Source of the DNA: Candidatus Magasanikiibacteriota bacterium
GTDB lineage: Bacteria; Patescibacteriota; Patescibacteriia; Magasanikbacterales; UBA922
Reading direction: 5' to 3'
Assembly (NCBI GenBank): GCA_014729395.1
Contig: WJJZ01000006.1
Span: 7,090-71,089 of the forward strand
DNA length: 64,000 bases
The notes beneath the pieces are model-generated. The model was given only the letters and a program-made list of their open reading frames with translations, did no database searches and was not told where the DNA came from. The translations under genes and the position numbers were made by a program. Numbering within the stretch: position 1 is the first letter of the stretch; every line of letters starts with the position of its first letter. This document shows, piece by piece, positions 16,629 to 37,826 of this stretch.

Positions 16629-17477
16629 ATGCATTCACTAGGTCCTGGTTTGTGTTCCAAGATTAAAATATTTTTTATGAATAAATTTATAATGAATAAG
16701 TTAGTAAAGGCCAAAGCAGAAGCTGAGTCTTTGGCTCATGTTGGCTTATTTTCAAAAACGGATTGTTATTGCTTTTTTATTGGTTACGCGAGGAGTGGTC
16801 ACAGTTTGGTGGCCTCTATCATTGATGCACATCCAAATGCCGTTATAGCTCAAGAATTTCCTGTTGTTGACTATTTAAGACTTGGTTACAATAATCGACA
16901 AATTAAGTACTTAACATTTAAACATGCTAAAAAATTTTACAAAAATGATTATGTTGTTGGTGGGTATAAATATCATATACCAAACCAACATCAAGGTTCT
17001 TTTACTGATATTAGAGTTATAGGTACAAAAAAAGGGGGTAGAAAAAATATTTTTTTTATGAAGGAACCTAATTTGTTAAGTAAAATTCCTGAGAATACAA
17101 AATTCGTACATATAACGAGGAATCCTTATGATATAATGTCAGCGATGATGACTAAGTGGAAAAAGGGTTTTAATTTTCATTTTAATTTGTTTTTTTCAAT
17201 TTGTGATGCAAATTTATTTATCAAACAAAATATTAGTGATAAAAATATACATAATTTGAGACATGAAGATTTTGTTCATGAACCAAAAAGAGAAATTACA
17301 AAGTTATGTGATTTTCTAGGTTTAAAGACGTGCAACAGTTATCTTAACGATTGTGTTTCAATTATAAAAGAAAAACCACATGAAAGGAGATATGAGTTTG
17401 ATTGGAGTAAAGAAATGATCGAAAGAGTTAAAGAAAAAATAGAAGATTATAATTTTTTAAAAGATTATACATTTTGA
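16629..17477 (+). CDS. Sulfotransferase family protein (PAPS-dependent type). The start is uncertain: the ORF opens at TTG 16614, and ATGs at 16629 and 16677 are alternatives.
   Basis: 5'-PSB-like FFIGYARSGHSL near the N-terminus and 3'-PB-like HITRNPYDIMSA mid-protein. Confidence 0.6.
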   Translation: MHSLGPGLCSKIKIFFMNKFIMNKLVKAKAEAESLAHVGLFSKTDCYCFFIGYARSGHSLVASIIDAHPNAVIAQEFPVVDYLRLGYNNRQIKYLTFKHAKKFYKNDYVVGGYKYHIPNQHQGSFTDIRVIGTKKGGRKNIFFMKEPNLLSKIPENTKFVHITRNPYDIMSAMMTKWKKGFNFHFNLFFSICDANLFIKQNISDKNIHNLRHEDFVHEPKREITKLCDFLGLKTCNSYLNDCVSIIKEKPHERRYEFDWSKEMIERVKEKIEDYNFLKDYTF

Positions 17478-17490
17478 AAAATTTTAGTAA

Positions 17491-18576
17491 ATGAATGTTT
17501 TTGAAGAAAATAGAAATATGAAATTATTAATCTTGACTCAAAAAGTAGATGCCAATGACCATGGTGTGCTTGGTTTTTTTCATGGTTGGTTAAAAGAGTT
17601 CGCCAAAGATTGTGAGAATGTAATCGTGGTTTGTTTGGAAAAAGGGGAATTTGACTTACCTGAGAATGTAAAGGTTTTAAGTCTGGGTAAAGAAACATGG
17701 GAATCAAAAATTAAATATCTATATAGGTTTTATAAATATATTATTAAATATAGAAAAGATTATGATGCGGTTTTTGTTCACATGAATCAGATATATGTTA
17801 TTTTAGGAGCGTTATTGTGGAAGGCTTGGAAAAAGAAAATTGGTTTGTGGTATGCACATGGTGCAACCCCATTTAGTTTGAAGGTGGCGGAAAAATTGAC
17901 TGATATGATTTTTACACCATCAAAAAAAAGTTTTAGAGTAAAATCAAAAAAATTAAATGTAGTCGGCCATGGTATTGATATGAATAAATATCAATTAAAA
18001 TCTCATAATAAGAAAAGCGAATTATGTGAAATATTAACTGTAGGAAGAATTTCTCCTATTAAAGATTATGAGACTTTAATTAGAGCAATGGAAAAACTCA
18101 GTAAAAAAGAAAGATACAAACATAAAATTATATTGAGAATCGTTGGTTCGCCAATAACAGAGGAACAAAAAAAATATTTTGATAAAATAAAGAAAAAAGT
18201 TAGAGAAAAAGGTTTATCTGACATAATTAAATTCACCGGTGGAGTTAGTTGTAAAGATATTCATAGTGTATATAAAGAATCAGATATTTTTATACATATG
18301 AGTCAGACGGGAAGCTTGGATAAAGCTATGCTTGAGGCAATGGCGACGGGTTTAACGGTTTTATCTTGTAATGATGCAGCCAGGGAGGTTTTTGGCGAAA
18401 ATAATTGCGATTTATTATATAATATGGCTGACTATGAAGACTTGGCGGAGAAGATGCAATATATTATAGACAACCAAGACAGAGATGGTGATTTGGGTGA
18501 AAGCCTTAGGCAGATTGTTGAAAAAAAACATAATTTAATCAACGTTATCAGAAGGATTTGTACAAAACTTAGTTAA
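17491..18576 (+). CDS. GT4-like glycosyltransferase
   Basis: C-terminal GSLDKAMLEAMATGLTV.S motif and an N-terminal Rossmann-like ILTQK segment. Confidence 0.55.
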   Translation: MNVFEENRNMKLLILTQKVDANDHGVLGFFHGWLKEFAKDCENVIVVCLEKGEFDLPENVKVLSLGKETWESKIKYLYRFYKYIIKYRKDYDAVFVHMNQIYVILGALLWKAWKKKIGLWYAHGATPFSLKVAEKLTDMIFTPSKKSFRVKSKKLNVVGHGIDMNKYQLKSHNKKSELCEILTVGRISPIKDYETLIRAMEKLSKKERYKHKIILRIVGSPITEEQKKYFDKIKKKVREKGLSDIIKFTGGVSCKDIHSVYKESDIFIHMSQTGSLDKAMLEAMATGLTVLSCNDAAREVFGENNCDLLYNMADYEDLAEKMQYIIDNQDRDGDLGESLRQIVEKKHNLINVIRRICTKLS

Positions 18577-18591
18577 GTTTATTAACTTATT

Positions 18592-19320
18592 ATGGAATTT
18601 AAAAAAAAAGAAAAAAAATTTTTAATAGTAGGTACCGGTAGAACCGGATCTTCTCTGCTATCTGCAATACTTTTAAAAAGTGGTGCAGATTTTGGCCTGA
18701 GGTCCAAAGATATTTGGGATAGACAAAAGGGCGATTTTGAACACTCGCTTATTCATGAAGCCTATAAATGGCAATCTAGGGTAGAAAAAATAGACCAATC
18801 AATACTGCCGAATTATTTTACAGTTTCTTTTTTTAACAATATTTGTAATAAGAAAATGGAGCAATTATTGACAGAAGTTGATTATGTAAAATCAAGTCAA
18901 TTAGTCTGGTTGGTTCATAGGGCTAAATACAAATTGGGTTTTGAGGTCAAAGTTATTGGAGTTTACAGGAATTTCTCTGATTATGTGATAAGTAGATATA
19001 AGAAATATGGAAGAAGTCTGGATCACTGGAGAAAAGAGTGGTTGGAGGTAAACAAAACACTTTTTTTGCAGGCTCAAATTATTCCTTCTCTGTTATTAAG
19101 TTATGAAGAAATTGTTGGTAGAAATGAAACTAAATGGATAGATAGGTTGGCACTATTTACAAATATAAGCAGAGAAAAATTAAGTTTTGCAGCCAATGAG
19201 ATAGTAGATAAAAAAAGTCACAAGAGAATTATGCAATATAATTTTGAAGATGACGACACCAGAAGAGTCTATAATCGGTTAAAGATGTTTAGTAATAAGT
19301 CCTCTATAGATAATAGATAA
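18592..19320 (+). CDS. Sulfotransferase family protein
   Basis: FLIVGTGRTGSSLL 5'-PSB-like motif and a mid-protein YRNFSDYVISRY motif. Confidence 0.65.
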   Translation: MEFKKKEKKFLIVGTGRTGSSLLSAILLKSGADFGLRSKDIWDRQKGDFEHSLIHEAYKWQSRVEKIDQSILPNYFTVSFFNNICNKKMEQLLTEVDYVKSSQLVWLVHRAKYKLGFEVKVIGVYRNFSDYVISRYKKYGRSLDHWRKEWLEVNKTLFLQAQIIPSLLLSYEEIVGRNETKWIDRLALFTNISREKLSFAANEIVDKKSHKRIMQYNFEDDDTRRVYNRLKMFSNKSSIDNR

Positions 19321-19356
19321 TAGATTTGGGATTATATAGACAATATTTTAACATAT

Positions 19357-20232
19357 ATGCCAGTAAATAAATGCAATTTATTTTTTATAGTGGGCTCATA
19401 TCGATCCGGTACAACTTTATTGAGGAATATTTTGAATTTACATGAGGACGTGGCCGTGGTGCCGGAAATGCATTTTTTTGACAATTTGATTGCTAACAGA
19501 AAAAAATATGGTGATATTAAAAAAAGAAAAAATAAGGTTGAGCTTGTGGATAACATATTTTTTAAAATAAAGAATTTTAATATTAGCCGTGGTGATTATT
19601 GGGAGAATATCAATTTGGATCATAAGTTATTAAAAAGTAAAATGTTAGACTGTACTGATTTGCGTGAATTATTTTTTGTTTTAGCCAGTTCTTTGTCAAG
19701 CAAGAATTCTTTCTCTGTTTTGATTGAAAAGACTCCGTATAATGTGTTCTTTTTAGAACAAATTACTGAGTTGTTTCCTGAAGCAGGAATAATACACATA
19801 ATTAGAGATGGACGAGAGGTCTGTGCTTCGGCCTGTAAAAGATGGGGTCTTGATTATTTAGGCCCGGCCACCAGGTGGAAAGATTCTATTAAAAGTTATG
19901 AAAAATATAATAAAAAAAATAAAGATAAGAAGGAAAAATTTATAGAAATTAGATATGAAGATTTAGTAGATGAACCAAAAAATACTATAAATAAAATTTT
20001 TAAATTTATAAATTTGGGATTAAACGAAAGTTTTTTTGAAAGAATGTCTGATCTCCCGTCTACAAGTTCATTTACTAGATATAAAAAAAATTTTGGCCTG
20101 TATAAAAGTAATAATTTTAAAAAATTTTTTTCTGATTCAGAACAGGATATAATTAACTATTTACTATATGAAGAGCTTAAGAAAAAAAATATAAGACCCA
20201 AACAACCAAGATTTATTTTTTTAAAAAGATAA
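19357..20232 (+). CDS. Sulfotransferase family protein
   Basis: FFIVGSYRSGTTLL and IIRDGREV (3'-PB RDGR) motifs. Confidence 0.7.
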   Translation: MPVNKCNLFFIVGSYRSGTTLLRNILNLHEDVAVVPEMHFFDNLIANRKKYGDIKKRKNKVELVDNIFFKIKNFNISRGDYWENINLDHKLLKSKMLDCTDLRELFFVLASSLSSKNSFSVLIEKTPYNVFFLEQITELFPEAGIIHIIRDGREVCASACKRWGLDYLGPATRWKDSIKSYEKYNKKNKDKKEKFIEIRYEDLVDEPKNTINKIFKFINLGLNESFFERMSDLPSTSSFTRYKKNFGLYKSNNFKKFFSDSEQDIINYLLYEELKKKNIRPKQPRFIFLKR

Positions 20233-20340: not shown

Positions 20341-21213
20341 ATGAATAAGCCAAGATTACATTATATTGGGATCGGTGGGCAGAAATGCGCAACGAGTTGG
20401 CTATCAAAATGTATCTCTGAACACCCTGAATTAGATATTTTTCCGGGTAAGGAAATTCATTTTTTTAGTGAAACTAAAAAATACAATAAAGGCTTAGAAT
20501 TTTATACAAATTTTTTTAAAGACTGTGATTTCAGTAAGAAGGTGGGGGAGTTCAGTACGACTTATCTGAATTCTTTTAAAGCTGCTGATCGGATTAAGGA
20601 GTATTACCCGGATATTAAAATTATTGTTTCCATCAGAAATCCGATCGATCGAGCCGTCTCACATGTTAGGCATTTATTATCAACCGGAAAAATTAATTAT
20701 TTCCGTAATTGGGATGATCCGTTTTTGATAGAACAATCCCTTATCGAACGTGGATATTATGGAAAATATGTTGAATATTATATCAAACTGTTCGGTAGAG
20801 AGAATATATTGATTATTTTATTTGATGATATTTCGAATAAACCTGACAAAGTAGTTAAAGATATTTATACTTTTCTTGATGTTGATAATTCTTTTAAACC
20901 AAGCAGTATAGATAAAAAATATAATAGTAGTAATGCAAGATCTTTCTCAGCTTTTTGGTTATTAAACAATATATATTTAAAATATAGAAATAATTCATTA
21001 TTTAAAATATCAACATCAATATTTAAAAAAATGGGCATTAATTCAGTTTTGATTAATAATTTTTTTGATAAACTTGGCAAAGTTAAAATAGAAAAAATAA
21101 AATTCAAAAGAAGTGAGTTGATTGAAATATATAGAGATGATATAAAAAAAACGGAACGAATAACAAAGAGAGATTTATCGGATTGGTATACTTTTAATGA
21201 AAAAGAAATATAA
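20341..21213 (+). CDS. Sulfotransferase family protein (subfamily with an IGIG..KCATSW...HPE N-terminus)
   Basis: YIGIGGQKCATSWLSKCISEHPEL and SIRNPIDRAVSH motifs. Confidence 0.7.
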   Translation: MNKPRLHYIGIGGQKCATSWLSKCISEHPELDIFPGKEIHFFSETKKYNKGLEFYTNFFKDCDFSKKVGEFSTTYLNSFKAADRIKEYYPDIKIIVSIRNPIDRAVSHVRHLLSTGKINYFRNWDDPFLIEQSLIERGYYGKYVEYYIKLFGRENILIILFDDISNKPDKVVKDIYTFLDVDNSFKPSSIDKKYNSSNARSFSAFWLLNNIYLKYRNNSLFKISTSIFKKMGINSVLINNFFDKLGKVKIEKIKFKRSELIEIYRDDIKKTERITKRDLSDWYTFNEKEI

Positions 21214-21274
21214 AAAATTATTGTACTTTATATATTAATGTTATAATCAAATAATATAGATTCTTTTAAAAAAT

Positions 21275-22690
21275 ATGATAAGTTTATCTAAGTTTTCAAA
21301 ATTTATAAACAACAACAAGATACCAATTTTTCTATTTTTTTTGGCTCTTTTGAGCGGTTTTTTTTGGAACCACCGTTTTTATTTTCAAGCGATTCCAAGC
21401 GGCGGCGACCAAAGACAATATAGTTGCCTTGCAATCGATATGATCGAAAATGGAACGTATACGGAATGTGGTACTGAAAGTTTCTTAGAACCGGGATATC
21501 CATTATTTTTGGCCAGTATTTTTTTATTTTCAGATACTAGCCCCATTGCTGTGAGATTCGTTCAATTGTTTATTTTTGGTGTTATTGTAGTTTTAATATA
21601 TTTTTTGAGCAGAAGATTATTTGATAGTAAGGTAGCTTTCATAGCAGGGTTATTTACAGCCTTACATTGGAGTCTAGCTAACTATACCGGTTCTCTCATA
21701 CGAGAGGTTTTTTTAGTTTTTTCTATTCTGCTTTTAGTTTATTCATTATATATCGCAGTTTCGAGCAAAAAAAATACACATTTTATAATATCCGGGTTGC
21801 TTTTTGGGGTTGTGGCACTTTCGAATGCTATTATAGAATATTTTTTATTGTTTATAATTATTAATTTTATAATTATATTAAGAAAAAAAATAGAGATAAA
21901 GCAAATTTTTTTAAAGATAGGTTTATTTCTTTTTGCATTTTGTTTAATTTTGAGTCCGTGGATTGTAAGAAACTCTCTCTATTATAATAAACTGGTTGTT
22001 TCGCTTACACCAAAGAAGGGTCATATTTTGAGTATGAGGGCCGCCTTGATGGAGGAGATGTACCCGAATATTCATAAATATTATTTTGGTCATCTTTTTG
22101 GTTATTATTTTGCAGAAAAAGTATATCCGGATTTGGATATTTGGGCGTTTAGGGATTTTAATGCTGCGAATAGCGTCATGTTGGAATTGCGCGAAGAAGG
22201 GTATAATCTGAATCAAATAGATGAAATAATTTCAGAAAGAGCTGTTAATAAAATTATCACACAACCTCATAAATATGTAGCTTTTTGTATTTTAGATTTT
22301 TTAAATTTTAACAGTCCATTGATACCACAAAAAATATTCATGGGTAATTCTTATGTCCATTATACCTTTGCTGAAGGTAGATTCCCAACTGTACCCGGCT
22401 ATGTAAAATCAGGTGTGTTGATATTATTTCGAATCTACTGGTATACATTTTTGTTTTTAGTTATTTATGGTCTTTGTAAAAATATAAAAAATTGGGAAAA
22501 AATAAGTTGGTTTTTTTTGATTATTTTATATTTTAATGGTGTATATAGTGCGGTTCATGCACTCCCTCGCTATGCTGTCCAAATTTATCCTTTTTATATA
22601 ATATTAGCTTCAGCAGGAGTATTAATCTTATTTAAAAAATATAAGCATAAAATCAAAAGTTTAGTCGGTAAATTAAGTAAAACCAAATAA
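21275..22690 (+). CDS. GT-C fold polytopic membrane glycosyltransferase (ArnT/PMT-like, GT39/GT83-type)
   Basis: About 11 TM helices. The first periplasmic loop has a D/E-rich GGDQRQY..AIDMIENG motif reminiscent of ArnT/PMT_2 enzymes. Confidence 0.5.
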   Translation: MISLSKFSKFINNNKIPIFLFFLALLSGFFWNHRFYFQAIPSGGDQRQYSCLAIDMIENGTYTECGTESFLEPGYPLFLASIFLFSDTSPIAVRFVQLFIFGVIVVLIYFLSRRLFDSKVAFIAGLFTALHWSLANYTGSLIREVFLVFSILLLVYSLYIAVSSKKNTHFIISGLLFGVVALSNAIIEYFLLFIIINFIIILRKKIEIKQIFLKIGLFLFAFCLILSPWIVRNSLYYNKLVVSLTPKKGHILSMRAALMEEMYPNIHKYYFGHLFGYYFAEKVYPDLDIWAFRDFNAANSVMLELREEGYNLNQIDEIISERAVNKIITQPHKYVAFCILDFLNFNSPLIPQKIFMGNSYVHYTFAEGRFPTVPGYVKSGVLILFRIYWYTFLFLVIYGLCKNIKNWEKISWFFLIILYFNGVYSAVHALPRYAVQIYPFYIILASAGVLILFKKYKHKIKSLVGKLSKTK

Positions 22691-22693
22691 ATT

Positions 22694-23629
22694 ATGTTCA
22701 TGCCGATTATAAAAAAAATTAGTGTTTTCATACCATTTTTAATAACCGGTCTGATTATATATCTACTTTTTAGTAATTTTGATATTGGACAGACTGTAAG
22801 AATAATCCAAACCGGCTCAAAATTTTTTTTGTTTTTATCAATATTTTTTATTTTTTTGACCACTTTAGTTCTGGCTTTACGATGGAAAATAATGCTTGGT
22901 TTATGCGGGCACAAAGATTCTTATAATAATATATTAAAAAAATATTTAGCGAGCGTGCCTTTTTCCAAAACAACTCCTTCAAATAGTGGAGATTTTATAC
23001 GAGCCGTATATACAAAAAATAAAATTGGTCTTACAAAAGGTTCCGGTATTGTTTTTATGGAAAATTTACTTGATATTTATGTTTTGACCTTTTTTGCGTT
23101 ATTCGGATCCTTAATAAAAGGAATGTTAGGTATATTTTTGATTATTTTTTTTATTGTAGTATTATCGTTTTTTTTACTGTTCATCTTAAATAAAATTAAT
23201 TTATCAAAATTAAGGTTAAATAATAAGTTCAAGCAGAAAATACAGTCTTTTTTTTCTATTTTTAGAGAATTTAAGAAAAATTCCATATCGTTTTTTTTAA
23301 AAATTTTGATCTTGACATCGTCAGCTTGGATACTTGTGATAGGCAGCTTTGTTTGCCTATTCATTGCTTTTGGGATAGATGTTCCCTTTTTTGAAGTTGT
23401 ATTTTTGCAACCGATTATTATTTTTTTAGGTTTGTTGCCGATTACGGTTTCCGGGGTGGGTATAAGGGAGTCGGCAATAATATTTTTTTATGCCGGCTAT
23501 GGATCAGCTGCATCATTAATGGCGGTAGGATTGTCTTATTCATGTTTTTCTGCTATTATTTTACCACTGTTATACCTGCCTTTTAGTTATCAGATTATTA
23601 AGAAAAAGCTTTTTTATGCAAGAAAATAA
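22694..23629 (+). CDS. Flippase-like / lysyl-PG-synthase-TM-family (UPF0104) membrane protein
   Basis: Eight TM helices and an LLPITVSGVGIRES motif. It sits between the GT-C gene and a Dpm1-like GT2, as in polyprenyl-phosphate-sugar pathways. Confidence 0.45.
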   Translation: MFMPIIKKISVFIPFLITGLIIYLLFSNFDIGQTVRIIQTGSKFFLFLSIFFIFLTTLVLALRWKIMLGLCGHKDSYNNILKKYLASVPFSKTTPSNSGDFIRAVYTKNKIGLTKGSGIVFMENLLDIYVLTFFALFGSLIKGMLGIFLIIFFIVVLSFFLLFILNKINLSKLRLNNKFKQKIQSFFSIFREFKKNSISFFLKILILTSSAWILVIGSFVCLFIAFGIDVPFFEVVFLQPIIIFLGLLPITVSGVGIRESAIIFFYAGYGSAASLMAVGLSYSCFSAIILPLLYLPFSYQIIKKKLFYARK

Positions 23630-24503
23630 ATATGAAATAAATGATAAATTGTCAATTTCATTCGTTATTCCCGTTTACAACGAAGAAATAATAATAAGAA
23701 ATGTGCTCGAAGATTTGAAGCAATATTTACGGTCTTTGGATATAAATTATGAAGTCATTGTCGTTAATGACGGTTCAAGCGACGATAGTAAAGAGATATT
23801 GGAATCCATAGATAATATTAGAGTTGTGAACCACCCATACAACAAAGGTTATGGTGCAGCTTTAAAAACCGGAGCCATGTTAGCTCGGTTCAAGTGGGTT
23901 ATGTTTTATGATGGCGACGGACAGCACAAGCCGAAATTAATTGGAGACTTAATTAAACATAATTCTCAATATGATATGATAGTAGGTGCGCGAGTCGGAT
24001 ACAAAGGTCCATGGATTAGGCAGCCGGGAAAAAAAATTTTAGGTGTGTTGGCAAATTATTTGGTAGATTTTAAAATTCCTGATTTGAATTCAGGTTTAAG
24101 GATGGTAAAGAAAGATTTTTTTGTCAAATATATCCATCTTTATCCGGATTCTTTCTCTCTTTCTACGACTATCACCATGGCTTTTTTAAAGGCCGGTTTA
24201 AATGTAAAATATGTACCGATTGAGATAAATAAACGGGTGGGTAAGAGTTCGGTCTCACCCAGGGACGCACTTAAAACTTTTATTTTGCTCATGCGAATGA
24301 TAGCCCTATTTGCGCCAATGAGAATTATTTTTCCAATAAGTCTTATATTTTTTGTTATGACACTGGTTTCTGTATCTTATGATCTATGGTTAAAAAATAT
24401 TTCTGATATTTCAGTAATTTTATTTGTTACAACAATTTTATTTTTTATTTTTGGAGTGATTTTAGATCAAATATCAGCCGTTAGAAGGGAGTTGAATAAA
24501 TAA
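23616..24503 (+). CDS. GT2 glycosyltransferase, Dpm1/ArnC-like polyprenyl-phosphate sugar synthase with C-terminal TM helices
   Basis: ISFVIPVYNEE, VIVVNDGSSDDS, NKGYGAALKTG and DGDGQH motifs plus two C-terminal TM segments. Confidence 0.75.
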   Translation: MQENKYEINDKLSISFVIPVYNEEIIIRNVLEDLKQYLRSLDINYEVIVVNDGSSDDSKEILESIDNIRVVNHPYNKGYGAALKTGAMLARFKWVMFYDGDGQHKPKLIGDLIKHNSQYDMIVGARVGYKGPWIRQPGKKILGVLANYLVDFKIPDLNSGLRMVKKDFFVKYIHLYPDSFSLSTTITMAFLKAGLNVKYVPIEINKRVGKSSVSPRDALKTFILLMRMIALFAPMRIIFPISLIFFVMTLVSVSYDLWLKNISDISVILFVTTILFFIFGVILDQISAVRRELNK

Positions 24504-28136: not shown

Positions 28137-28967
28137 ATGAATATAGTTTTTATACTTGGGAGTGGACATTGTGGTTCAACATTGCTTGACCTTATTTTGG
28201 ATTGTCATTCTAAAATAATCGGGGTTGGTGAATTTGAAAATGTAGGTAAGGAGAAACTGTGTAGTTGTGGCAGGGATTTTGAGGAGTGCGAGCTTTGGAA
28301 AAATATTTTAAAGCATAGGGATTTGTCGAAATTGAAGATATTTAGAACTAAAAAAGATTTTTTGTTAAACAAAAATAATTTTTATTACTATAAAAAAGAG
28401 ATGCGGTCGGTTGATTTAAATTCCTATATTACTGAGAATGAAAATATGTTTGATCAGGTTTTGGGTTTTTTTGACCAAAAGAAGGATTTTATAGTTGATT
28501 CTTCAAAGAACGTTGATAGATTTGAGCTACTTTTTAAAAGTAATTATATTAGACCGATTATTTTACATGTTGTCCGTGATGGTCGGGCTGTAACCTGGTC
28601 ATATTTTAAAAAGTACAAGAAAGCTATGCCTTATATGTGGAAATGGTTTGCACAAAATTTTAAAATTTATTATCTAAAAAAAAGAAACAAAGCGGATTAT
28701 GTTTTTGTACGTTATGAAAACTTAGCTAAAAATCCTAAAAAAGAAATTGAACGTATACTTAATAGCTTAGGTTTGGTTTATGAAGAGAATATGTTAAATT
28801 TTAGAAATTTTACTCATCATCAGGCTGGTGGTAATAGAATGCGTTTGTCCGGCACTAATGAGATAAAAGAAGATGTAAGTTGGAAAAAGAATTTACCTAT
28901 GAAATATCGACTGTTATTCAATATTTTGTTTGGCTGGTTAAATTTTTATTATGCAAGAAAAAGGTAA
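28137..28967 (+). CDS. Sulfotransferase family protein
   Basis: VFILGSGHCGSTLL and VVRDGRAVTWS motifs. Confidence 0.65.
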   Translation: MNIVFILGSGHCGSTLLDLILDCHSKIIGVGEFENVGKEKLCSCGRDFEECELWKNILKHRDLSKLKIFRTKKDFLLNKNNFYYYKKEMRSVDLNSYITENENMFDQVLGFFDQKKDFIVDSSKNVDRFELLFKSNYIRPIILHVVRDGRAVTWSYFKKYKKAMPYMWKWFAQNFKIYYLKKRNKADYVFVRYENLAKNPKKEIERILNSLGLVYEENMLNFRNFTHHQAGGNRMRLSGTNEIKEDVSWKKNLPMKYRLLFNILFGWLNFYYARKR

Positions 28968-29850
28968 TAAATTTAAAATTAATTTTATTGGCGTGGGGAC
29001 ACCAAGAAGCGGTACTACATGGATATCCAAATGTTTATCTGAACACTCGCAAATTTGTTTCTCAAAGGAAAAAGAAACTCATTTTTTTGATAAAGATTAT
29101 AATTTTGACAAGGGTCTGGAATACTACCGGTCTTTTTTTGAAAATAAAGAGAAGCAAGAGGGTGTGATTCTGGGTGAATTTACACCGAGCTATTATCGTG
29201 ATGAGAAGTGCGCAAAAAGAATTAAAACATTTTTTCCTGATGTAAAAATTATATTATGTTTGAGAAATCCCGTTGATAGAGCTCTGTCTGATTATCGTTA
29301 CAATAAAAAGAGAGGTGCTAAGCTGGGTCAAAATTTACTTGAAGAGCCTGAATTAAACTTGGATGAAAGAGTGGTGTCAGACGGTTTTTTTTATAATCAT
29401 TTAGAAAAGTTTTTAATTCCTTTTAATTTCAATAATATTCATATTATCCTGCATAAAGATATTAAAAAACACCCGGATAAAGTTCTTAGAAAGCTTTATG
29501 ATTTTTTGGGGGTGAATAATGATTTTATTCCGTCCTCGCTACATCAGAGGGTCAACACCACCGAAGGCACCAATTATCGTTACCCGGCGATAAATAGAAT
29601 TATTAATTATAGAAAAAAATTGAAAAACGATGCTGTAGGTCGATTTATATTAAATATTTTTAAATTACTTGGCATTGGTTATTTGTCAAAAAAGTTAATT
29701 CAAGCCAATAAGACATCCAAACAAAAAAATATTTTTTCTGAAGAGGAAATTAACAATTTTAAAATAAAATTATTTGATGTTTACTTAAAGGATATTAATA
29801 AATTGGAAGACTTGATAAAAAAAGATCTTAGTATATGGAAACAGATTTAG
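28951..29850 (+). CDS. Sulfotransferase family protein (IGVG..RSGTTW...HSQI subfamily)
   Basis: FIGVGTPRSGTTWISKCLSEHSQI and LCLRNPVDRALSDY motifs. Confidence 0.7.
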   Translation: MQEKGNKFKINFIGVGTPRSGTTWISKCLSEHSQICFSKEKETHFFDKDYNFDKGLEYYRSFFENKEKQEGVILGEFTPSYYRDEKCAKRIKTFFPDVKIILCLRNPVDRALSDYRYNKKRGAKLGQNLLEEPELNLDERVVSDGFFYNHLEKFLIPFNFNNIHIILHKDIKKHPDKVLRKLYDFLGVNNDFIPSSLHQRVNTTEGTNYRYPAINRIINYRKKLKNDAVGRFILNIFKLLGIGYLSKKLIQANKTSKQKNIFSEEEINNFKIKLFDVYLKDINKLEDLIKKDLSIWKQI

Positions 29851-31025: not shown

Positions 31026-32092
31026 AAAAAATATTAATAATAGGTTCATATAATAAAGAATATCCCAGAAATAAAGTATTAATAAATACACTTAAGGACT
31101 TTTTTGATATTGAAGAAATTAACAACAAATATGAAAAATGGACCAGGCATGTATTTTTTTTAAAAGCAGTTTTAAAACATAGAAAGGAAAAAGATTTTTT
31201 ACTTTTGTTACATCCAGCTCGTAAATTTGTCTTTAGTTTGTTTCTGTCTAAAATATTTTTTAGTGGTAAAATCATTGTGGATGCTTTTAACTCGGTTTAT
31301 GATTCCTTTATCTATGATCGTAAATTAGCGAGTAAATATTCGATTAAAGCTTTTTATTATTTTCTTTCGGATTATTTAATGTGTAGATTGACCGATATCA
31401 TATTTTTTGATACACGGGAACACAAAGATTACTTCATTAATAAATTTAAAATTAAGGATTTTAAGAAAAAAGTTGTCCTACCTGTTTCTGTTGATTTAAA
31501 TTTATTTGAAGATGTTCCTGACTTATCTGATAAAGGTATCTTTCCTAAGGATAAATTTAATATTTTTTTCTATGGTTGTTATATACCCTTGCAGGGTATA
31601 GAGTATATTGTAAAAGCTGCTAAAATTTTAGAAAAAGAAAAGTTAATGAATTTTGTCCTGTTAGGTGCGGGACAAACTAGAAAAGAGATAAATGCTTTAT
31701 GCGAAAAATTACAATCAAAGAATATTACCTTTATTGATCGAGTTCCTTATGAAGATTTAATAAAATATATAAATGCATCGGATGTGTGTCTGGGTATTTT
31801 TGGTGATACTGATAAGGCTATGAGGGTTGTTCCCAATAAAGTTTTGGAATACGGTGCTTGTAAAAAAATAGTTGTAACAGGTAGAAATAAAGCAATGGAG
31901 AGATACTTTGAAGATGGCAGAGATTTATTATATTGTAATATGGCAGACGAACATGATTTGTCAAAAAAAATACTCCGGGTTTATCATGATTATGATAGTT
32001 ATATTAAAATGGGGGATAATATCTATAAAAAAATTAAGCAAAATTTTACTAAAGAGTCGTTGGCTGAAATTATAAATAAAGAGCTAACATGA
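31022..32092 (+). CDS. Probable GT4-like glycosyltransferase
   Basis: Two Rossmann-like halves, with KVLEYGACKKIVVT near the C-terminus. The motifs are weak. Confidence 0.4.
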   Translation: MKKILIIGSYNKEYPRNKVLINTLKDFFDIEEINNKYEKWTRHVFFLKAVLKHRKEKDFLLLLHPARKFVFSLFLSKIFFSGKIIVDAFNSVYDSFIYDRKLASKYSIKAFYYFLSDYLMCRLTDIIFFDTREHKDYFINKFKIKDFKKKVVLPVSVDLNLFEDVPDLSDKGIFPKDKFNIFFYGCYIPLQGIEYIVKAAKILEKEKLMNFVLLGAGQTRKEINALCEKLQSKNITFIDRVPYEDLIKYINASDVCLGIFGDTDKAMRVVPNKVLEYGACKKIVVTGRNKAMERYFEDGRDLLYCNMADEHDLSKKILRVYHDYDSYIKMGDNIYKKIKQNFTKESLAEIINKELT

Positions 32093-33429
32093 GTATTAAA
32101 AATTTTTACAATAAAAAAGTATATAAAAAAATTAACAGATTTCGTAGGAAGGCTATTTTGAGTTTTATAAAGAAAAATAATCCGGTTGTACTTGATGTGG
32201 GCTGTGGTCGCGGTTTGCTTGGTGAAATAATTAAAAAAGAAAAAAAAGCTACTGTTTTTGGTATTGATATTTCAGAAGACGCAACAAAGGAGGCATCTAA
32301 AAAGCTAGATAATGTTTTTTGTTTTAATTTGGAGACAAATCAGGAGTGGCCGGATGAATTAAAGATGCAAGAATATGATTATGTTGTTATTTCCGAAGTT
32401 TTGGAACACTTGATGGAGCCCGAGGAGATTTTATTTAAAATAAAGCAGGCAATTAGCCATAATACCGAGATAATAATTACAGTCCCCAATATTTTATGGT
32501 GGAAAAATAGATTAAAGATTTTTCTAGGACATTTTGAGTATACTGATAGTGGTCTTATGGACAAAGGGCATATCCATTTTTTTTCCTGGAAAAGTTTTAA
32601 GGATTTAATTAGAAAGACCGGCTATCATATAACACAAGAAAATCACCACATCCCTACACGAGGGACAAAATATTTTGGTAGGATTTGGCCCGGACTTTTT
32701 GCTAAACAGTTTATTGTGAAAATTAAAAAAAATAACATTGTTATATATACTGCTATCTTGGGGGGCAAAGATGCTCTTACAGAACCAAAGTTTATTCCGG
32801 ATAATTGTGATTTTATTTGTTTTACAGATGATGAGGTTTTAAAATCAAAGACTTGGAAAGTGGTAAATATCGGGGTTGGTTCCGGTGACCCGGCTAGGGA
32901 TTCACGAGAAATGAAATTATTACCACATAAGTATTTATCCGATTATGAATATAGTATTTGGGTTGATGGTAATATGTTGGTTCACGGCGACGTTAATGAG
33001 TTAATTGATAAGTATTTGAAAAGCAACAATATTGCCATGTTTGATCATAATCAATTGACTGGGGATAAAAGGAATTGTATATACAAAGAAGCCGAAGTGT
33101 TGGTGAAAATGGCAAAAACAGAAAAATACAAAGATGACCCTAGTTTAATATTAAAACAAGTTAGTAGATATAAAGAAGAGGGGTACCCAGAGGATAATGG
33201 ATTGATATCGGGTATGGTTATTTTAAGGAAGCATAATTATTACGATGTAAAGAAGGTAATGGAAGATTGGTGGTCCGAATTAAAAAATAATAGTAAGCGC
33301 GATCAGTTGAGTTTTAACTATGTGGCATGGAAGAATAATTTGGATTTTGTGTATATCCAAGGTGATTCAAGAGATAATAAGTACTTTAAGCGTTTACCCC
33401 ATTTAAGAAAAAAGAACTATAAAATATGA
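32089..33429 (+). CDS. Fusion of a class I SAM methyltransferase (N-terminal) and a DUF616-like putative glycosyltransferase domain (C-terminal)
   Basis: VLDVGCGRGLLG methyltransferase motif. The C-terminal half has IVIYTAILGGKD...FICFTDDE, recalled as typical of DUF616/TOD1-like proteins. Confidence 0.5.
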   Translation: MSIKNFYNKKVYKKINRFRRKAILSFIKKNNPVVLDVGCGRGLLGEIIKKEKKATVFGIDISEDATKEASKKLDNVFCFNLETNQEWPDELKMQEYDYVVISEVLEHLMEPEEILFKIKQAISHNTEIIITVPNILWWKNRLKIFLGHFEYTDSGLMDKGHIHFFSWKSFKDLIRKTGYHITQENHHIPTRGTKYFGRIWPGLFAKQFIVKIKKNNIVIYTAILGGKDALTEPKFIPDNCDFICFTDDEVLKSKTWKVVNIGVGSGDPARDSREMKLLPHKYLSDYEYSIWVDGNMLVHGDVNELIDKYLKSNNIAMFDHNQLTGDKRNCIYKEAEVLVKMAKTEKYKDDPSLILKQVSRYKEEGYPEDNGLISGMVILRKHNYYDVKKVMEDWWSELKNNSKRDQLSFNYVAWKNNLDFVYIQGDSRDNKYFKRLPHLRKKNYKI

Positions 33430-34298
33430 GCCCTAAAGTATCAGTTATCATTCCGACTTATAATCGACCTGAATTTATTGACAAAGCCATAAAGTCAGTT
33501 TTAAATCAAACTTATCAGGATTTTGAAGTTATTGTTGTTGATGATGGTACAAGGGTTAGGGCTGAAGATGTGGTTAAGAAAATAAAAGACAATAGAGTGG
33601 TGTATATAAAACATCCGGAAAATAGGGGTGGAGGAGCCGCCAGAAACACAGGGATAAAAAAATCCAGGGGAGAATATGTTGCCTTTCTGGATGACGATGA
33701 TGAGTGGTTGCCGGAAAAATTGGAGATACAAATGAAGGAATTTGAAAAGGCGGGTGATGACGTGGGTTTTTGTTTTTCTAGTGTGATCAATAAAACAAAA
33801 GAAGGAGACAAAACCAAAGAAGTCTACGATGGGATAAAAAATTTCCACGAGGATGTCTTACGTAATTTTAAAGGGTTTTTAACTGTCACTCTAATAATAA
33901 AAAGAAAAGTTTTTGATGAGGTGGGTGGTTTTGATGAAAGATTTCCAAGCCATCAAGAACCGGATTTGATTATTAGAGTAACAAAAAAATATAGGGGTTT
34001 GGGTGTAAATAAGCCATTGGTAAAAGTGAATATGATGGGGGACCATGATCATATTGGAGCCAACTTAGATAAAAGAATTGCGGGACGCAGGATGATATTG
34101 AATAAATATTTGGGTGAATTTAAAAAAAAGCCAAGATTTTTGGCAAAGCATTATTTTCAGTTGGCTATTTTTTTAAGAGACGATGGAGAAATTGAAGAGG
34201 CGAGTGAGTTTTTTAAAAAAGCGTGGAAAACAAATTTTCATTGGCGGTATTTTGCTCATTATGTTGTTATGAAAATAAAAACCATTTATATATATTAA
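33426..34298 (+). CDS. GT2-family glycosyltransferase
   Basis: VSVIIPTYNRPEFI, VIVVDDG and FLDDDDEW (DxD) motifs. Confidence 0.75.
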   Translation: MSPKVSVIIPTYNRPEFIDKAIKSVLNQTYQDFEVIVVDDGTRVRAEDVVKKIKDNRVVYIKHPENRGGGAARNTGIKKSRGEYVAFLDDDDEWLPEKLEIQMKEFEKAGDDVGFCFSSVINKTKEGDKTKEVYDGIKNFHEDVLRNFKGFLTVTLIIKRKVFDEVGGFDERFPSHQEPDLIIRVTKKYRGLGVNKPLVKVNMMGDHDHIGANLDKRIAGRRMILNKYLGEFKKKPRFLAKHYFQLAIFLRDDGEIEEASEFFKKAWKTNFHWRYFAHYVVMKIKTIYIY

Positions 34299-35233
34299 TT
34301 ATCCCAATTTAGCTTGCGGTTAAGAAATTTTTCTAATTTTTTATTTTCTTCTCTATATATATCGTTTATAATTTTGCGATATTTAGGTGATAATTGAGGT
34401 CTTTTTTGTAGAGATGTTATTGAGTGTACTGACCTGTCGCAAAATTTTAGTGTATTAAGGGCTAAGTTATTTACTGTATTATTTTTAATAATCGGCATTA
34501 CTCTTTTTTTTATAGAGGATTGCATAAGGTTGTTTTTAATTTTTTGGTAAGTTTTTAGTGTTTTATTATTTTTTTTCCAGGTAGGGTTTGGCACATAATT
34601 TAAAAGCGATGGTGTAAAATTTTTATCCACATCCAAAAAAATATAAATTCTTTTAATAAATTTTTCGGGGTTTACCTTTAGGTCGTCGTGTAATAATAAA
34701 AGAATTTTATCTTTATCAAAAAAATTTAGGTAATTATTTATATGTTTCATATAAAATCCCGTGGATATAATTTCATCATTATTTAAAAAATGATCGAACG
34801 AGAAGAATTTTTTTTCATATTTTTTTTCATAGTTTCCTTTAGCATGTAGATAGTGAGAGTAAAGGCGATCTGTAGGATTCCTTAGGATTGCTATTATTTT
34901 CGTTTCAGGAAAATGTTTTTTGATTAATTTTGGTGTGTCTTTGTCAAATAAGTAATAAACACTGAATTCACCTATTATATTTCCCGGCTTACAATGCCTG
35001 AAATTTTTTTTGTATTCATCAATCCCTTTTGTGTATTTCCACTCTTCATCTTTTCTATAAAAAGGCCTGAATTTGTTAAAAAAATCCAATTCTTTATTGT
35101 TTGAAAGACATATTTGTGGGTGCTCCCTTAGGCATTTTGCCGTCCAACTGGTACCGCATTTGGGAGCACCAACTCCTATGAAATCTATTTTAAAATCATC
35201 TTGATTCATTTTTTTAGCATTTTTTTTGGCCAT
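34295..35233 (-). CDS. Sulfotransferase family protein (IGVG..KCGTSW...HPQI subfamily)
   Basis: FIGVGAPKCGTSWTAKCLREHPQI and AILRNPTDRLYSHY motifs. Confidence 0.7.
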   Translation of the reverse strand: MAKKNAKKMNQDDFKIDFIGVGAPKCGTSWTAKCLREHPQICLSNNKELDFFNKFRPFYRKDEEWKYTKGIDEYKKNFRHCKPGNIIGEFSVYYLFDKDTPKLIKKHFPETKIIAILRNPTDRLYSHYLHAKGNYEKKYEKKFFSFDHFLNNDEIISTGFYMKHINNYLNFFDKDKILLLLHDDLKVNPEKFIKRIYIFLDVDKNFTPSLLNYVPNPTWKKNNKTLKTYQKIKNNLMQSSIKKRVMPIIKNNTVNNLALNTLKFCDRSVHSITSLQKRPQLSPKYRKIINDIYREENKKLEKFLNRKLNWDN

Positions 35234-35572
35234 GATGTTTTTTTGTTAATTCATTATAATAAAATCAGATTCTTTGAATTTAATTTTTCTCCTATTCGTG
35301 GGTTCCATTAGAATATTAATAAATGACTATTTTAAAATGGTAAATCTAAAGTATGATTTCCACATTTTTTCTCCAATTGGATTTTTAATTCCTTCAGGGG
35401 TCATGTGGTTGTAAAAACCCTTGTTATTTGGTGAGTGTTGATATTAATCGTCGTCATTTTTTAGTATGTGGAAATAGATATAATAATATTTTCCTTGTTA
35501 CAATGTTTAGTAAGATTAATTTTTACGCTGATGCCATAACTTTACTTAATTTTATAAACATATATGATCATA

Positions 35573-36823
35573 TTACATTCTTTTAAAAAGATATAATTTA
35601 AATAAAGTAAGTAATATATTTGTTATGATAATGGAAATTATAGCACCCCATATTCCAAAAAATACTATCATAGGGAGAAGTAATATAATTTTTAATACTG
35701 CCCCAAAAATTCTCATATAATATAACTGCTTTTTAAGACCTTGTGAAGTAAAGGTAGTACCAATAAGTATATAGGGTGTCAGTAGTACCGAAATAGCAAA
35801 AACTTGGGAATATTTAACAGAATCTAAATATTGAGGGAATAATATCTTAAAAATAAGAGGTGAGAAGAGAATGTATAAGATAGTGGGAATTATAAGCAGT
35901 AAGGTCATTTTAACTATTTTAGAAGGTAAGGTTTTTTTGATAATATTTTTATCTTTCGAGGCCATTTTAGGCATTGCCAAAGTTGAGATGGCATTAAAAA
36001 ATGACTTCATTTCTTTTATTGGGACGGTAGCAAATGAATATATGGCCAATTGAGCCGCACCCAAAAAATGCCACATTATAATTTTGTCTATGTTGTTGGT
36101 AATCGTTCCAAAAAAATCTATGATTGTTAAATGTTTTCCGAAAGATATAGTGTCAGCTGCTCTTTTTTTGTTTAATTTAAATTTTTTATAAATGTAGATT
36201 GAAAAAAAAGTTTGTATGATTAGTGAGGAAAGGTAAAAAACCGTTATTAAATAGGTCACTTTAGGATAAAATATTAGCGTTATGATAATTAAAATAGCAG
36301 AGCTTACCTGTATTATGGTGCTGTATATGGCACTTTGCTTAAACAATTTTCTTCCCTTGAGAAATGAACCATGAACAATCAAGCCGTTTGTGGTTGGTGC
36401 AAGAGTACCGGCAATTAAAAAACAAAATCCAAGTATAGAATTTCCATTGTGAAAGTAGTAAGCGGAAATAATAAGTCCGGCCAATGAACCCAGGAGTGAC
36501 CACTTAAATTTTTTTTTAATTATCCGCATGGTGTCGTTTTCGTAGCCACGGGCTACGGATCTCGTAAGGGCCGTGTTTAAACCTGGTAAAGCCGTTAAAC
36601 TAAGAATACCGGCGATGGATAGTACGTATTTATATAAACCATAATCCGTTTTTGATAATAGATTGGCATATGCTATGGCTAAAATAAGAGAGCCAACAGA
36701 AGTTATGATTTTGTTTAAACTTAACCATAAGCCACCCTTAGCAATATAAATCATGTCAGTGTGTGTGTATTTCTGACTCCAGATAAGCAGATTTTTTACC
36801 TTGTATTTTAATTTTTTATACAC
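35573..36823 (-). CDS. Wzx-type oligosaccharide/polysaccharide flippase (MOP superfamily)
   Basis: 416 aa with ~12 TM helices, a GTG start, and the typical Wzx hydropathy pattern inside a glycan locus. Confidence 0.6.
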   Translation of the reverse strand: MYKKLKYKVKNLLIWSQKYTHTDMIYIAKGGLWLSLNKIITSVGSLILAIAYANLLSKTDYGLYKYVLSIAGILSLTALPGLNTALTRSVARGYENDTMRIIKKKFKWSLLGSLAGLIISAYYFHNGNSILGFCFLIAGTLAPTTNGLIVHGSFLKGRKLFKQSAIYSTIIQVSSAILIIITLIFYPKVTYLITVFYLSSLIIQTFFSIYIYKKFKLNKKRAADTISFGKHLTIIDFFGTITNNIDKIIMWHFLGAAQLAIYSFATVPIKEMKSFFNAISTLAMPKMASKDKNIIKKTLPSKIVKMTLLLIIPTILYILFSPLIFKILFPQYLDSVKYSQVFAISVLLTPYILIGTTFTSQGLKKQLYYMRIFGAVLKIILLLPMIVFFGIWGAIISIIITNILLTLFKLYLFKRM

Positions 36824-36878
36824 ATTTTAATATCTTAATTATTAGTGGATTATTATATCACTATTTTGTTCGATTTTA

Positions 36879-37826
36879 CTATTCGCTCCACTCTAATTTA
36901 CGATTTAAGAATATTTCTAATTCTTTATTTTTGTCCTGGTAAGTTTGATTTAATTCTTTGATTATTTCTTTTGGGACTCCTTTTTTTTCTTTGTTATGTG
37001 TATATTTTTTGATTAGTTTATCAGTTGGATCAAAAACTATTTTTAAAATAAGTTTATTGAGTTTTAGTGGTTTAAGAAAAAACATTATATTTTTTTTAAT
37101 TTTACTAGACATTATTTTGTTTTTCCAATTTATATAATTGGATCTCAATAAACTAGTTTTTGGCCCGGTTACATTCACTCTTTTATTTAAGCTTTCTGGC
37201 ACAAAATTATCATCTACATTTAGAAAATTGTAAATTGATTTAATGAATTTTTGAGGATCTCGTTTGATATCTTCGTAGATTAAAATTAAAAGTTGTTCTT
37301 TGGAAAAATATCGCAAGTATCTCTTGATATGGTCTATATAGAAGCCGGTTTCGATAAAGTCAGTCTTTTCTTTTATAATTTTTTTGATATCTGGTAGTTT
37401 TCTTTTGCGTTTTCCATCAAATTTACCTTGGAAATAACTAGAGATTAGACGCTCGGTAGGATTCCGAACAATAAAGATTAACTTAATATTAGGAAAATGT
37501 TCCTTAATTAGGGCAGGGGTCTTTGGATCATGATGGTAATGTGTACTGAATTCTCCCTTTATACTAGCTATACTGCAATGCTTGAATTGATCTAAGTACC
37601 AGCTGATTCCTTTTAGGTATTGCCAATCTTTTCTTTCATGGTAAAAATTAGCTTTTTTATTATAAAAATGTAATTCTTTATTTTTGGGAAAGCAGATTTG
37701 TGGATGTTGGGATAGACATTTAGCTACCCAGGTGGTAGCGCATTTTTGGGCCCCGATCCCAATGAAATCTACTTTAAATTGTTTTTTTTGTTTGGAATTT
37801 AGATTTTTTAATATCAGCTCATTCAT
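36879..37826 (-). CDS. Sulfotransferase family protein (IGIG..KCATTW...HPQI subfamily)
   Basis: FIGIGAQKCATTWVAKCLSQHPQI and FIVRNPTERLISSY motifs. Confidence 0.7.
   Translation of the reverse strand: MNELILKNLNSKQKKQFKVDFIGIGAQKCATTWVAKCLSQHPQICFPKNKELHFYNKKANFYHERKDWQYLKGISWYLDQFKHCSIASIKGEFSTHYHHDPKTPALIKEHFPNIKLIFIVRNPTERLISSYFQGKFDGKRKRKLPDIKKIIKEKTDFIETGFYIDHIKRYLRYFSKEQLLILIYEDIKRDPQKFIKSIYNFLNVDDNFVPESLNKRVNVTGPKTSLLRSNYINWKNKIMSSKIKKNIMFFLKPLKLNKLILKIVFDPTDKLIKKYTHNKEKKGVPKEIIKELNQTYQDKNKELEIFLNRKLEWSE

Follow-up and report, generated by a model that had tools for sequence, protein, structure and literature searches.

Why should a member of the Candidate Phyla Radiation (CPR) carry eight sulfotransferase genes within 21 kb, and did these genes multiply where they now stand? 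The genes lie in a 64-kb stretch of DNA (hereafter the window) from a metagenome-assembled genome (MAG) of Candidatus Magasanikbacteria (Patescibacteria/CPR, Parcubacteria group), and an earlier note on this DNA had taken them for two subfamilies that grew by recent duplication, tandem or dispersed. According to our analysis they form the core of a Wzx/Wzy-type glycan-biosynthesis island of ~45 kb (about 6–51 kb of the window), and it is likely that they encode eight sulfotransferases dependent on 3'-phosphoadenosine 5'-phosphosulfate (PAPS), which belong to five old lineages, are not recent duplicates and each sulfate a different position. Genes are named here by their first position in the window: group B comprises 20341, 28951, 34295 and 36879 (the last two on the minus strand), and group A comprises 16629, 18592, 19357 and 28137 (Table 1).

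Eight predicted PAPS-dependent sulfotransferases

All eight genes are intact open reading frames (ORFs) at exactly the coordinates given in the earlier note, and all eight products score above the curated Pfam cut-off for PF00685 and/or PF13469, 18592 marginally so (23.8 bits vs 22). Six locus tags were recovered (Table 1), on a contig of 107,222 bp, and the genes that carry them are annotated as 'hypothetical protein'. The 5'-phosphosulfate-binding loop, a Lys or Arg followed by G/A-(T/S)-(T/S), is present in seven of the eight proteins, with 28137 having His instead, and the 3'-phosphate-binding motif shows its R...S spacing at +8 in seven proteins and at +7 in 16629. The Arg of the latter motif is invariant in every family, and its Ser is kept in 82 of 84 group B members, 83 of 84 members of the 28137 family and 23 of 23 members of the 19357 family, while the 16629 family has Ala or Ser. 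AlphaFold2 models of 36879 and 18592 (predicted local distance difference test, pLDDT, 90.2 and 92.8) both have the sulfotransferase fold, and the top Foldseek matches for both are sulfotransferases. We predict that all eight proteins are PAPS-dependent sulfotransferases with transfer activity. Compared by sequence they fall into five deeply separated lineages, namely the group B family and four further families with a single member each. Eight sulfotransferases in 21 kb is the highest count among ~43 related loci, followed by six in locus L039 and five in locus L002.

Group B and its kinship with 3-OST and NDST

The four group B proteins form a genuine family, with mutual identities of 33–43% over nearly their full length (all-against-all BLASTP, E 1e-43 to 1e-82), and the motif RNP.(D/E)R..S, which had been pointed out before, is found in 4/4. 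Their N-termini, described in the earlier note as near-identical, are less alike than that: a 27-residue block is 41–67% identical, and the pattern given for it matches only 36879 exactly. Across 84 family members the conserved positions are K/R28, T/S31, E51 (84/84), E92 (83/84), R121 (84/84) and S129 (82/84), and the conserved blocks correspond to the canonical PAPS elements (the 5'-phosphosulfate-binding loop and the Arg...Ser helix of the 3'-phosphate-binding motif) plus a catalytic segment. Because these common blocks are PAPS-binding and catalytic elements kept family-wide, their conservation reflects function and not recency.

Searched against the PDB, the group B profile matches 3RNL over its full length (E 3e-50) and, at E 1e-27 to 1e-31, the heparan sulfate (HS) 3-O-sulfotransferases 3-OST-5, 3-OST-1 and 3-OST-3 and the sulfotransferase domain of NDST1. 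The best Foldseek matches of the 36879 model are 3RNL and HS 3-OST-1 and 3-OST-3, with TM scores of up to 0.80 (normalised by target length). E51 stands in the segment KE.H(F/Y)(F/Y) (E51-x-H53), ~22 residues after the Lys of the phosphosulfate-binding loop, and aligns with the Glu of EIHFF in 3-OST-5. Glu90 of 3-OST-1 is catalytic (PMC7183009), Glu is the catalytic base of HS3ST1 and NST1, with similarity to the TPSTs (reviewed in PMC11625862), and the spacing of Lys162, Glu184 and His186 reported for 3-OST-3 (PMC8341778) fits E51-x-H53. E51 thereby fits the role of the catalytic Glu, where we infer the mapping of residue numbers. E92, in GEFS, was considered for the same role and set aside in view of the E-x-H spacing (PMC8341778) and of the alignment, in which it matches the Glu of IEKS in 3-OST-5.

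At the position of the Lys in IEKS of 3-OST-5 (Lys215 of 3-OST-3 by inferred numbering) 78 of 84 family members have Phe or Tyr, and five residues beyond the catalytic Glu, where by spacing 3-OST-3 has Asp189, the four paralogs read N, N, D and S. Judged from the Lys215 and Asp189 positions of the set Lys215, Asp189, Gln255, Lys368 and Arg370, the HS-binding residues are not kept in group B, which by these comparisons is related to 3-OST/NDST and should not be filed as HS 3-OST. Divergence among the four paralogs peaks at residues 55–88, 137–162 and 216–290 (21–32% identity vs 45–54% in the cofactor core); this loop and C-terminal divergence is compatible with differing acceptors, but is no proof of them.

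Members of the group B family also occur in Bacteroidota, Gammaproteobacteria, Desulfobacterota, Methanocaldococcus and other archaea. Group B-type sulfotransferases with 35–46% identity over the matched region are encoded on cultured Methanocaldococcus chromosomes (L010, L016) and in a Promethearchaeota (Asgard) MAG (L008), and these archaeal proteins may be candidates for sulfating archaeal glycans.

Group A consists of four separate families

The earlier view of two subfamilies holds for group B and fails for group A. Here the best pair, 19357/28137, is 27% identical (E 3e-9), all other pairs have E values above 1e-4 (all-against-all BLASTP), and external relatives reach 40–66% vs at most 27% within the window. 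Since its members can barely be aligned with each other, group A is not one subfamily. The pattern G..RSG(T/S/H)(T/S)LL ascribed to the whole group occurs in 19357 only, the other three proteins reading GYARSGHSLV, GTGRTGSSLL and GSGHCGSTLL.

The 16629 family conserves R55, G57, E76 and R164; 16629 itself has a weak PDB match to the CurM sulfotransferase, and both 16629 and 28137 weakly match the CurM/OLS sulfotransferase domains. The 18592 family is rare (149 representative clusters among 1.84e9 proteins), and no sequence match to 18592 was found in the PDB. The best Foldseek matches of its model are SULTs and the sulfotransferase domains of CurM and OLS, and in a profile alignment (hhalign) with group B both PAPS motifs of the 18592 family align. 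The 19357 protein matches TPST1/2 at about E 1e-9, and its family conserves R16, T20, E37, R150 and S158. In the GxGHCGST loop of the 28137 family (P0123–P0136 and others), His replaces Lys/Arg in 83 of 84 members and Cys comes next in 67 of 84; the mode of PAPS binding may differ in this family.

These deviations raise the possibility that some of the eight are inactive relics and that the functional count is much lower. Besides the His in the PAPS loop of 28137, 34295 has Asp at the position of His53, the Ser of 16629 lies at +7, where its family has Ala or Ser, and a neighbouring radical SAM gene appears split. However, all eight ORFs are uninterrupted and match their homologs in length, the odd residues are conserved in the respective families and not private to this genome, and the core Arg of the 3'-phosphate-binding motif is invariant in every family. 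We consider the loss of activity improbable.

Recent local duplication is not supported

Used as a profile query, the four proteins of group B returned 776 relatives at E below 1e-5. For all eight genes the closest external relatives surpass the in-window paralogs. In group B, in-window vs best external identities are 33–35 vs 45% (20341), 34–37 vs 46% (28951), at most 43 vs 45.5% (34295) and at most 43 vs 57% (36879, external protein P0004). In a neighbour-joining (NJ) tree of 118 sequences, built with a simple distance model and 60 bootstraps, the four genes span almost the whole tree and represent at least three old sublineages; monophyly of all four was recovered in 0/60 bootstraps and an exclusive sister pair of 34295 and 36879 in 0/60, compared with 60/60 for 36879 and P0004. 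In group A most pairs were too dissimilar for a joint alignment, and its members were searched singly or as the one related pair.

Synonymous divergence (dS, NG86) of the six group B pairs is 1.7–3.2 or undefined, i.e. saturated, which makes a dN/dS test uninformative for this group, and third-position identity is 0.39–0.46 vs 0.31 expected from composition. At the DNA level, 34295 and 36879 have a direct match of 123 nt at 73% (35072–35194 vs 37656–37778) and 20341 and 36879 an inverted match of 70 nt at 73% (20357–20426 vs 37702–37771), both in the N-terminal motif region; no DNA repeat between the paralogs is longer than the 123-nt match. In two comparison arrays, co-resident group B paralogs (five in L002, four in L039) are only 33–49% identical, and no recent duplicates were seen anywhere in the group B family sample, these arrays included.

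The N-terminal block and the RNP..R..S motif common to the four group B proteins, which had suggested an expansion at this locus by recent tandem or dispersed duplication and later divergence, possibly under diversifying selection, are PAPS-binding and catalytic motifs kept across the whole family. Two of the four genes, 34295 and 36879, do flank Wzx on the minus strand, as the earlier note had seen, and the 123-nt direct match between them would also suit local duplication. Against this stand the identities within the window (33–43%, below the external 45–57%), the absence of monophyly and of the exclusive sister pair from all 60 bootstraps, the saturated dS and near-chance third positions, and the mostly unalignable pairs of group A, each member of which sits in its own family. 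Moreover, the distances among the paralogs, both inside group B and between the members of group A, equal those to database homologs, a pattern that the earlier note itself had set against its proposal. We give this origin hardly any probability, and its 'recent' part is refuted.

Could one pair be older? In such a scenario 34295 and 36879 stem from an old duplication in an ancestral cluster and the other six genes were acquired independently. The two are mutual closest in-window paralogs (43%), fall into the same small six-sequence NJ clade and both adjoin Wzx, and P0004, the ortholog of 36879, also abuts a Wzx gene. The six-member clade, however, was recovered in only 15–19 of 60 bootstraps, external relatives are as close or closer (45.5% and 57%), and the locus of P0004 (L035) shows one sulfotransferase beside Wzx, within a 5.5-kb contig. 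We regard an old duplication of this pair as unlikely.

The same lineages recur in related clusters

Related clusters carry 2–6 sulfotransferases. L043, from a Patescibacteria MAG (record CAYSPW010000006.1, assembly GCA_964433095.1), is syntenic with the window over 13 genes, with identities of 61% for the Wzy_C/TPR protein, 71% for the epimerase and 31–58% for the glycosyltransferase family 4 (GT4) genes. In this cluster the ortholog of 18592 (65%) directly adjoins that of 20341 (46%), and 16629 and 19357 are missing. In L038 a 28137-like gene (50%) stands immediately before a 28951-like gene (42%), the same gene pair as in the window, and the locus also has Wzx (39%), CysC (49%), the priming transferase (38%) and an S8 peptidase (35%) in the order of the window; L038 is therefore a compact two-sulfotransferase version of the island. 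In the window, the stop of 28137 and the start of 28951 overlap by 17 nt (28951–28967), which suggests translational coupling, and the two genes appear to be a conserved two-sulfotransferase module. In L035, P0004 (57% to 36879) abuts a Wzx gene 45% identical to that of the window. Six sulfotransferases lie within 12 kb in L039 (one 19357-like, one 28137-like and four of group B) and at least four in L041, in both cases interleaved with glycosyltransferases. L002, from a Saccharibacteria MAG (CAYNAD010000006.1), has five group B genes in strict tandem within 4.5 kb (7315–11757) with pairwise identities of 33–43%; like the island, it is a CPR locus densely packed with old paralogs.

Given the closer external relatives, the conserved synteny and the low identities within other arrays, the paralogous lineages are old and co-travelling and have been gained and lost between clusters. 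The comparisons do not support an origin of the eight genes by recent local duplication in this genome, and point to a set put together and kept up as related glycan clusters, CPR MAGs included, retained, gained, lost and shuffled long-diverged genes.

Gene content of the island and sulfate activation

The island has a G+C content of 27–33%, below that of its flanks, and encodes ~13 glycosyltransferases: eight GT4, three of family 2 (GT2), a TOD1/MUCI70-like domain on a methyltransferase, plus a GT-C route with GT2. Genes for sugar precursors and modification comprise two UDP-sugar dehydrogenases, three epimerase/dehydratases, a WbuX-like amidotransferase, two radical SAM proteins and methyltransferases. 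Sulfotransferase genes are interspersed with those of the glycosyltransferases, and Wzx and a priming transferase are present, as in an xss-like cluster. The Wzy_C domain of the membrane protein at the left edge is common to polymerases and ligases. Neither polysaccharide co-polymerase/outer membrane export (PCP/OPX) components nor regulators of the XssQ/R/S type were found among the Pfam and NCBIfam annotations of the window ORFs; OPX would not be expected if this CPR cell has no outer membrane.

Table 1. Positions in the window of the sulfotransferase genes (groups A and B) and of the other features of the island
Feature	Coordinates	Strand	Evidence
Wzy_C (O-antigen ligase/polymerase-like) membrane protein with C-terminal TPR	6184..8217	+	PF04932 1.9e-21 plus TPR; L043 ortholog 61%
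GT4	8183-9424	-	PF00534/PF13692; syntenic with L043
Epimerase/dehydratase	10809-11744		PF01370; region syntenic with L043
GT4	11741-12886		PF00534/PF13692; region 8183..18576 syntenic with L043
B12-binding radical SAM, split	12982-14426		PF02310
GT4	14432-15556		PF00534/PF13692; region 8183..18576 syntenic with L043
GT4	15553-16626		PF00534/PF13692; region 8183..18576 syntenic with L043
A16629 (GF349_01950), singleton lineage, PF13469 type	16629..17477	+	PF13469 6e-15; external relatives at most 40%
GT4	17491-18576		PF00534/PF13692; region 8183..18576 syntenic with L043
A18592, rare ~240-aa family	18592..19320	+	marginal Pfam match; best external relative 66%
A19357 (GF349_01965), PF13469, TPST/NodH-like	19357..20232	+	PF13469 3e-31; external relatives 45-49%
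B20341	20341..21213	+	PF00685 2e-15; best external relative 45%; in-window paralogs 33-35%
GT-C (PMT_2)	21275-22690	+	
Flippase-like (LPG_synthase_TM)	22694-23629	+	
GT2, polyprenyl-P-sugar synthase-like	23616-24503	+	
Methyltransferase	24508-25038	+	
WbuX-like amidotransferase	25045-27036	+	
Radical SAM/SPASM	27023-28090	+	
A28137 (GF349_02005), 'GxGHCGST' family	28137..28967	+	PF13469 2e-12; external relatives 50-55%
B28951 (GF349_02010)	28951..29850	+	PF00685 6e-21; best external relative 46%
GT4	29835-31025	+	
GT4	31022-32092	+	
Methyltransferase fused to TOD1/MUCI70 glycosyltransferase-like domain	32089-33429	+	
GT2	33426-34298	+	
B34295 (GF349_02035), downstream of Wzx	34295..35233	-	PF00685 1e-20; 45.5% to external P0015
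Wzx-type flippase	35573..36823	-	PF01943 8.5e-21 and PF13440; 45% to L035 Wzx beside P0004; 39% to L038 Wzx
B36879 (GF349_02045), upstream of Wzx	36879..37826	-	PF00685 2e-21; 57% to external P0004
CysQ-like 3'(2'),5'-bisphosphate nucleotidase (removal of 3'-phosphoadenosine 5'-phosphate, PAP)	37927..38733	+	TIGR01331 1.3e-56, 192 bits, below equivalog cut-off 228.8; PF00459 1.8e-53
CysC adenylyl-sulfate kinase (adenosine 5'-phosphosulfate, APS, to PAPS)	38744..39280	+	NF002059 253.6 bits, above cut-off 244; PF01583 9e-62
CysH-like APS/PAPS-reductase homolog	39284..39913	+	NF002537 157.5 bits vs cut-off 154
Perfect 27-bp-stem hairpin with U-run	39971..40046	+	two exact inverted copies vs 0 expected; minimum free energy -60 kcal/mol, z -9.7
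Two UDP-sugar 6-dehydrogenases (uronic-acid precursors)	40113..42809	+	PF03721, PF00984 and PF03720 in both
Epimerase	42848-43765		
Priming phosphoglycosyl transferase (Bac_transf)	43858..45249	-	PF02397 2.6e-58; L038 homolog 38%
Epimerase	47350-48375	+	
GT2	48377-49036	+	
GT4 (right edge of island)	49563-50708	+	

Genes for CysQ, CysC and a CysH-like protein follow directly after the last sulfotransferase gene, and a CysC counterpart also lies beside the compact cluster L038. The CysH-like protein retains the CC...CxxC cysteines of the Fe-S cluster. Its alignment to Mycobacterium tuberculosis CysH (7LHR) ends ~22 residues before the end of that chain, and the catalytic ECGLH of the M. tuberculosis enzyme presumably lies past the end of the CysH-like protein. 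An ECGLH-type motif (EC[GA][LIV]H) was found in no frame of the window, which rules out a frameshifted continuation of the gene that carries it. A reductase apparently without this motif is odd beside CysC, CysQ and eight consumers of PAPS, and a non-reductive role in the handling of APS/PAPS is a possibility. A GC-rich nested palindrome, found nowhere else in the window, forms the hairpin that separates the CysH-like gene from the first UDP-sugar dehydrogenase gene. This hairpin probably serves as a strong terminator that closes the sulfur-activation genes, or it may be an element of the repetitive extragenic palindromic (REP) kind.

Several further features of the island and its left flank were noted. 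The B12-binding radical SAM gene, absent from the syntenic L043, appears split into two overlapping ORFs in different frames (12982–13899 and 13842–14426, plus strand), which may stem from a frameshift, pseudogenisation or an error in sequencing. Between GT4 and epimerase, inside the island, are a purine/uridine-phosphorylase-family gene and a phosphoribosyltransferase gene (9510–10793, plus strand), likewise without counterpart in L043. The genes for GT-C, the flippase-like protein and GT2 (21275–24503, plus strand) make up a three-gene extracytoplasmic glycosylation module within the Wzx/Wzy island and hint at a second glycan or at decoration after export. The 1868–5059 gene (minus strand) encodes a Cys/Asp-rich protein of 1063 aa with six or more MopE-type putative metal-binding repeats, and the G+C content of its region is 54%, compared with 30–38% elsewhere. 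Its smaller Cys-rich neighbour (5237–6031, minus strand) has a C-terminal region in common with it, and L043 holds a homolog of the MopE-repeat protein (51%) at the same position beside the Wzy_C/TPR gene.

Predicted product of the island

From the gene content, the likely product is an acidic surface glycan sulfated heavily and at multiple positions. The Bac_transf enzyme would prime the lipid carrier, and the ~13 glycosyltransferases would build an oligosaccharide with modified N-acetyl sugars and, given the two UDP-sugar dehydrogenases, probably uronic acid. Still in the cytoplasm, the sulfotransferases would each sulfate a different position with PAPS supplied by the adjacent CysC, and CysQ would clear the inhibitory by-product PAP. 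Once flipped across the membrane by Wzx, the unit would be polymerised or ligated at the cell surface by the Wzy_C/TPR protein. Position-specific sulfation by different enzymes is plausible in the light of their sequence divergence.

Several points weigh against this proposal. The assignment of substrates and product comes from gene content, the simple-distance NJ tree leaves the deep branches of group B poorly resolved, and no ATP sulfurylase (Sat or CysDN) is encoded in the 64-kb window. Two of the enzymes depart from the canonical residues: 28137 has its His, though family-conserved, in place of Lys/Arg, and 34295 has Asp instead of the His53 common to most of its family. The solved structures nearest to 19357 are the protein tyrosine sulfotransferases TPST1/2. 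Finally, two assembly logics coexist in the island, Wzx/Wzy and the trio of GT2, flippase-like protein and GT-C, so the eight enzymes may serve more than one glycan.

The last two points lead to an alternative in which the enzymes have two or more targets and not one polymer, whether the Wzx/Wzy polysaccharide, a glycan or glycolipid of the GT2/flippase-like/GT-C route, or tyrosines of secreted proteins via the TPST-like 19357. The varying sulfotransferase content of the related clusters (L043 without 16629 and 19357, L038 with two only) would fit such modular, separable functions. All eight genes are nevertheless interleaved with glycosyltransferases, as are the 19357 orthologs in L039 and L041, and carbohydrate sulfotransferases, NodH among them, also belong to PF13469 (PMC11625862). 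We think several targets possible but doubtful, and prefer multi-position sulfation of the Wzx/Wzy product.

Carried further, this preferred reading pictures a CPR bacterium, presumed to be host-attached, that is coated with a hypersulfated, uronic-acid-containing polymer akin to glycosaminoglycans (GAGs), with up to eight sulfation sites made by eight non-redundant enzymes, while related clusters swap modules to vary a 'sulfation code'. This picture is speculative and we hold it only tentatively; if true, no sulfated glycan system would have been described for the CPR before, and few bacterial glycan loci would match its density of sulfotransferases. Bacteria are held to make sulfated polysaccharides only rarely, and among the papers searched we found none that links sulfotransferases with CPR/Patescibacteria in a relevant way. 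The recurring clusters suggest that sulfation of glycans at several sites recurs as a modular trait among ultra-small bacteria of minimal metabolism, which apparently retain CysC and CysQ just for glycan sulfation. If so, they would open the surface chemistry and host attachment of the CPR to testing, and offer a pool of diverse bacterial carbohydrate sulfotransferases for the enzymatic synthesis of sulfated glycans.

Comparison with known systems

Group B has the fold, the 5'-phosphosulfate-binding loop, the R..S helix of the 3'-phosphate-binding motif and the E-x-H(F/Y)(F/Y) segment with the catalytic Glu in common with HS 3-OST-1, 3-OST-3 and 3-OST-5 and NDST1. Identity to these enzymes is only 18–28%, however, and the group B proteins lack a signal anchor or Golgi stem and have an extra C-terminal helical region. 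Their closest solved relative, C-terminal region included, is the Alicyclobacillus acidocaldarius sulfotransferase 3RNL (structural identity ~24%), which is described merely as 'Sulfotransferase' and gives no clue to the substrate. The R/H-x-G-(T/S)-(T/S) loop of 19357, 16629 and 28137 is also that of the NodH, KpsS/LpsS and TPST/RaxST types, and the 19357 and 16629 families have a conserved Glu ~20 residues after the loop, as does the TPST catalytic site. The three proteins are distant from the PF13469 carbohydrate and tyrosine sulfotransferases (identity at most ~25%), 28137 has His in place of Lys/Arg, and the genomic context of all three points to glycan and not to protein or Nod-factor substrates.

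The synechan xss cluster of Synechocystis sp. PCC 6803 is, like the island, of Wzx/Wzy type, with PAPS-type sulfotransferases of distinct subfamilies interleaved with many glycosyltransferases. Its two sulfotransferases and eight glycosyltransferases match the two sulfates and eight sugars per repeat, and two sulfotransferases in one cluster were treated as unprecedented (PMC8205485). The island has eight from five lineages and, unlike xss, CysQ, CysC and CysH-like genes beside the cluster, and its host is a CPR bacterium, not a cyanobacterium. By the logic of synechan, the island could specify a much more heavily sulfated product. Pontiella sulfatireligans F21, which has been chemically shown to make sulfated polymers, carries a putative cluster for a sulfated GAG-like exopolymer, described in a 2020 study according to which GAG-type sulfotransferases were not known in prokaryotes (PMC7356697). 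That cluster resembles the island in being non-cyanobacterial and glycosyltransferase-rich with a GAG-like sulfotransferase, but belongs to a different phylum and has one sulfotransferase (three in the whole genome) vs eight. The recognisable domains, the public genome and the existence of sulfotransferase-bearing polysaccharide clusters such as those for synechan and in Pontiella are already known. The novel points are that eight sulfotransferases of five lineages are packed into 21 kb, that the host belongs to the CPR, and that modular clusters with several sulfotransferases recur on related contigs.

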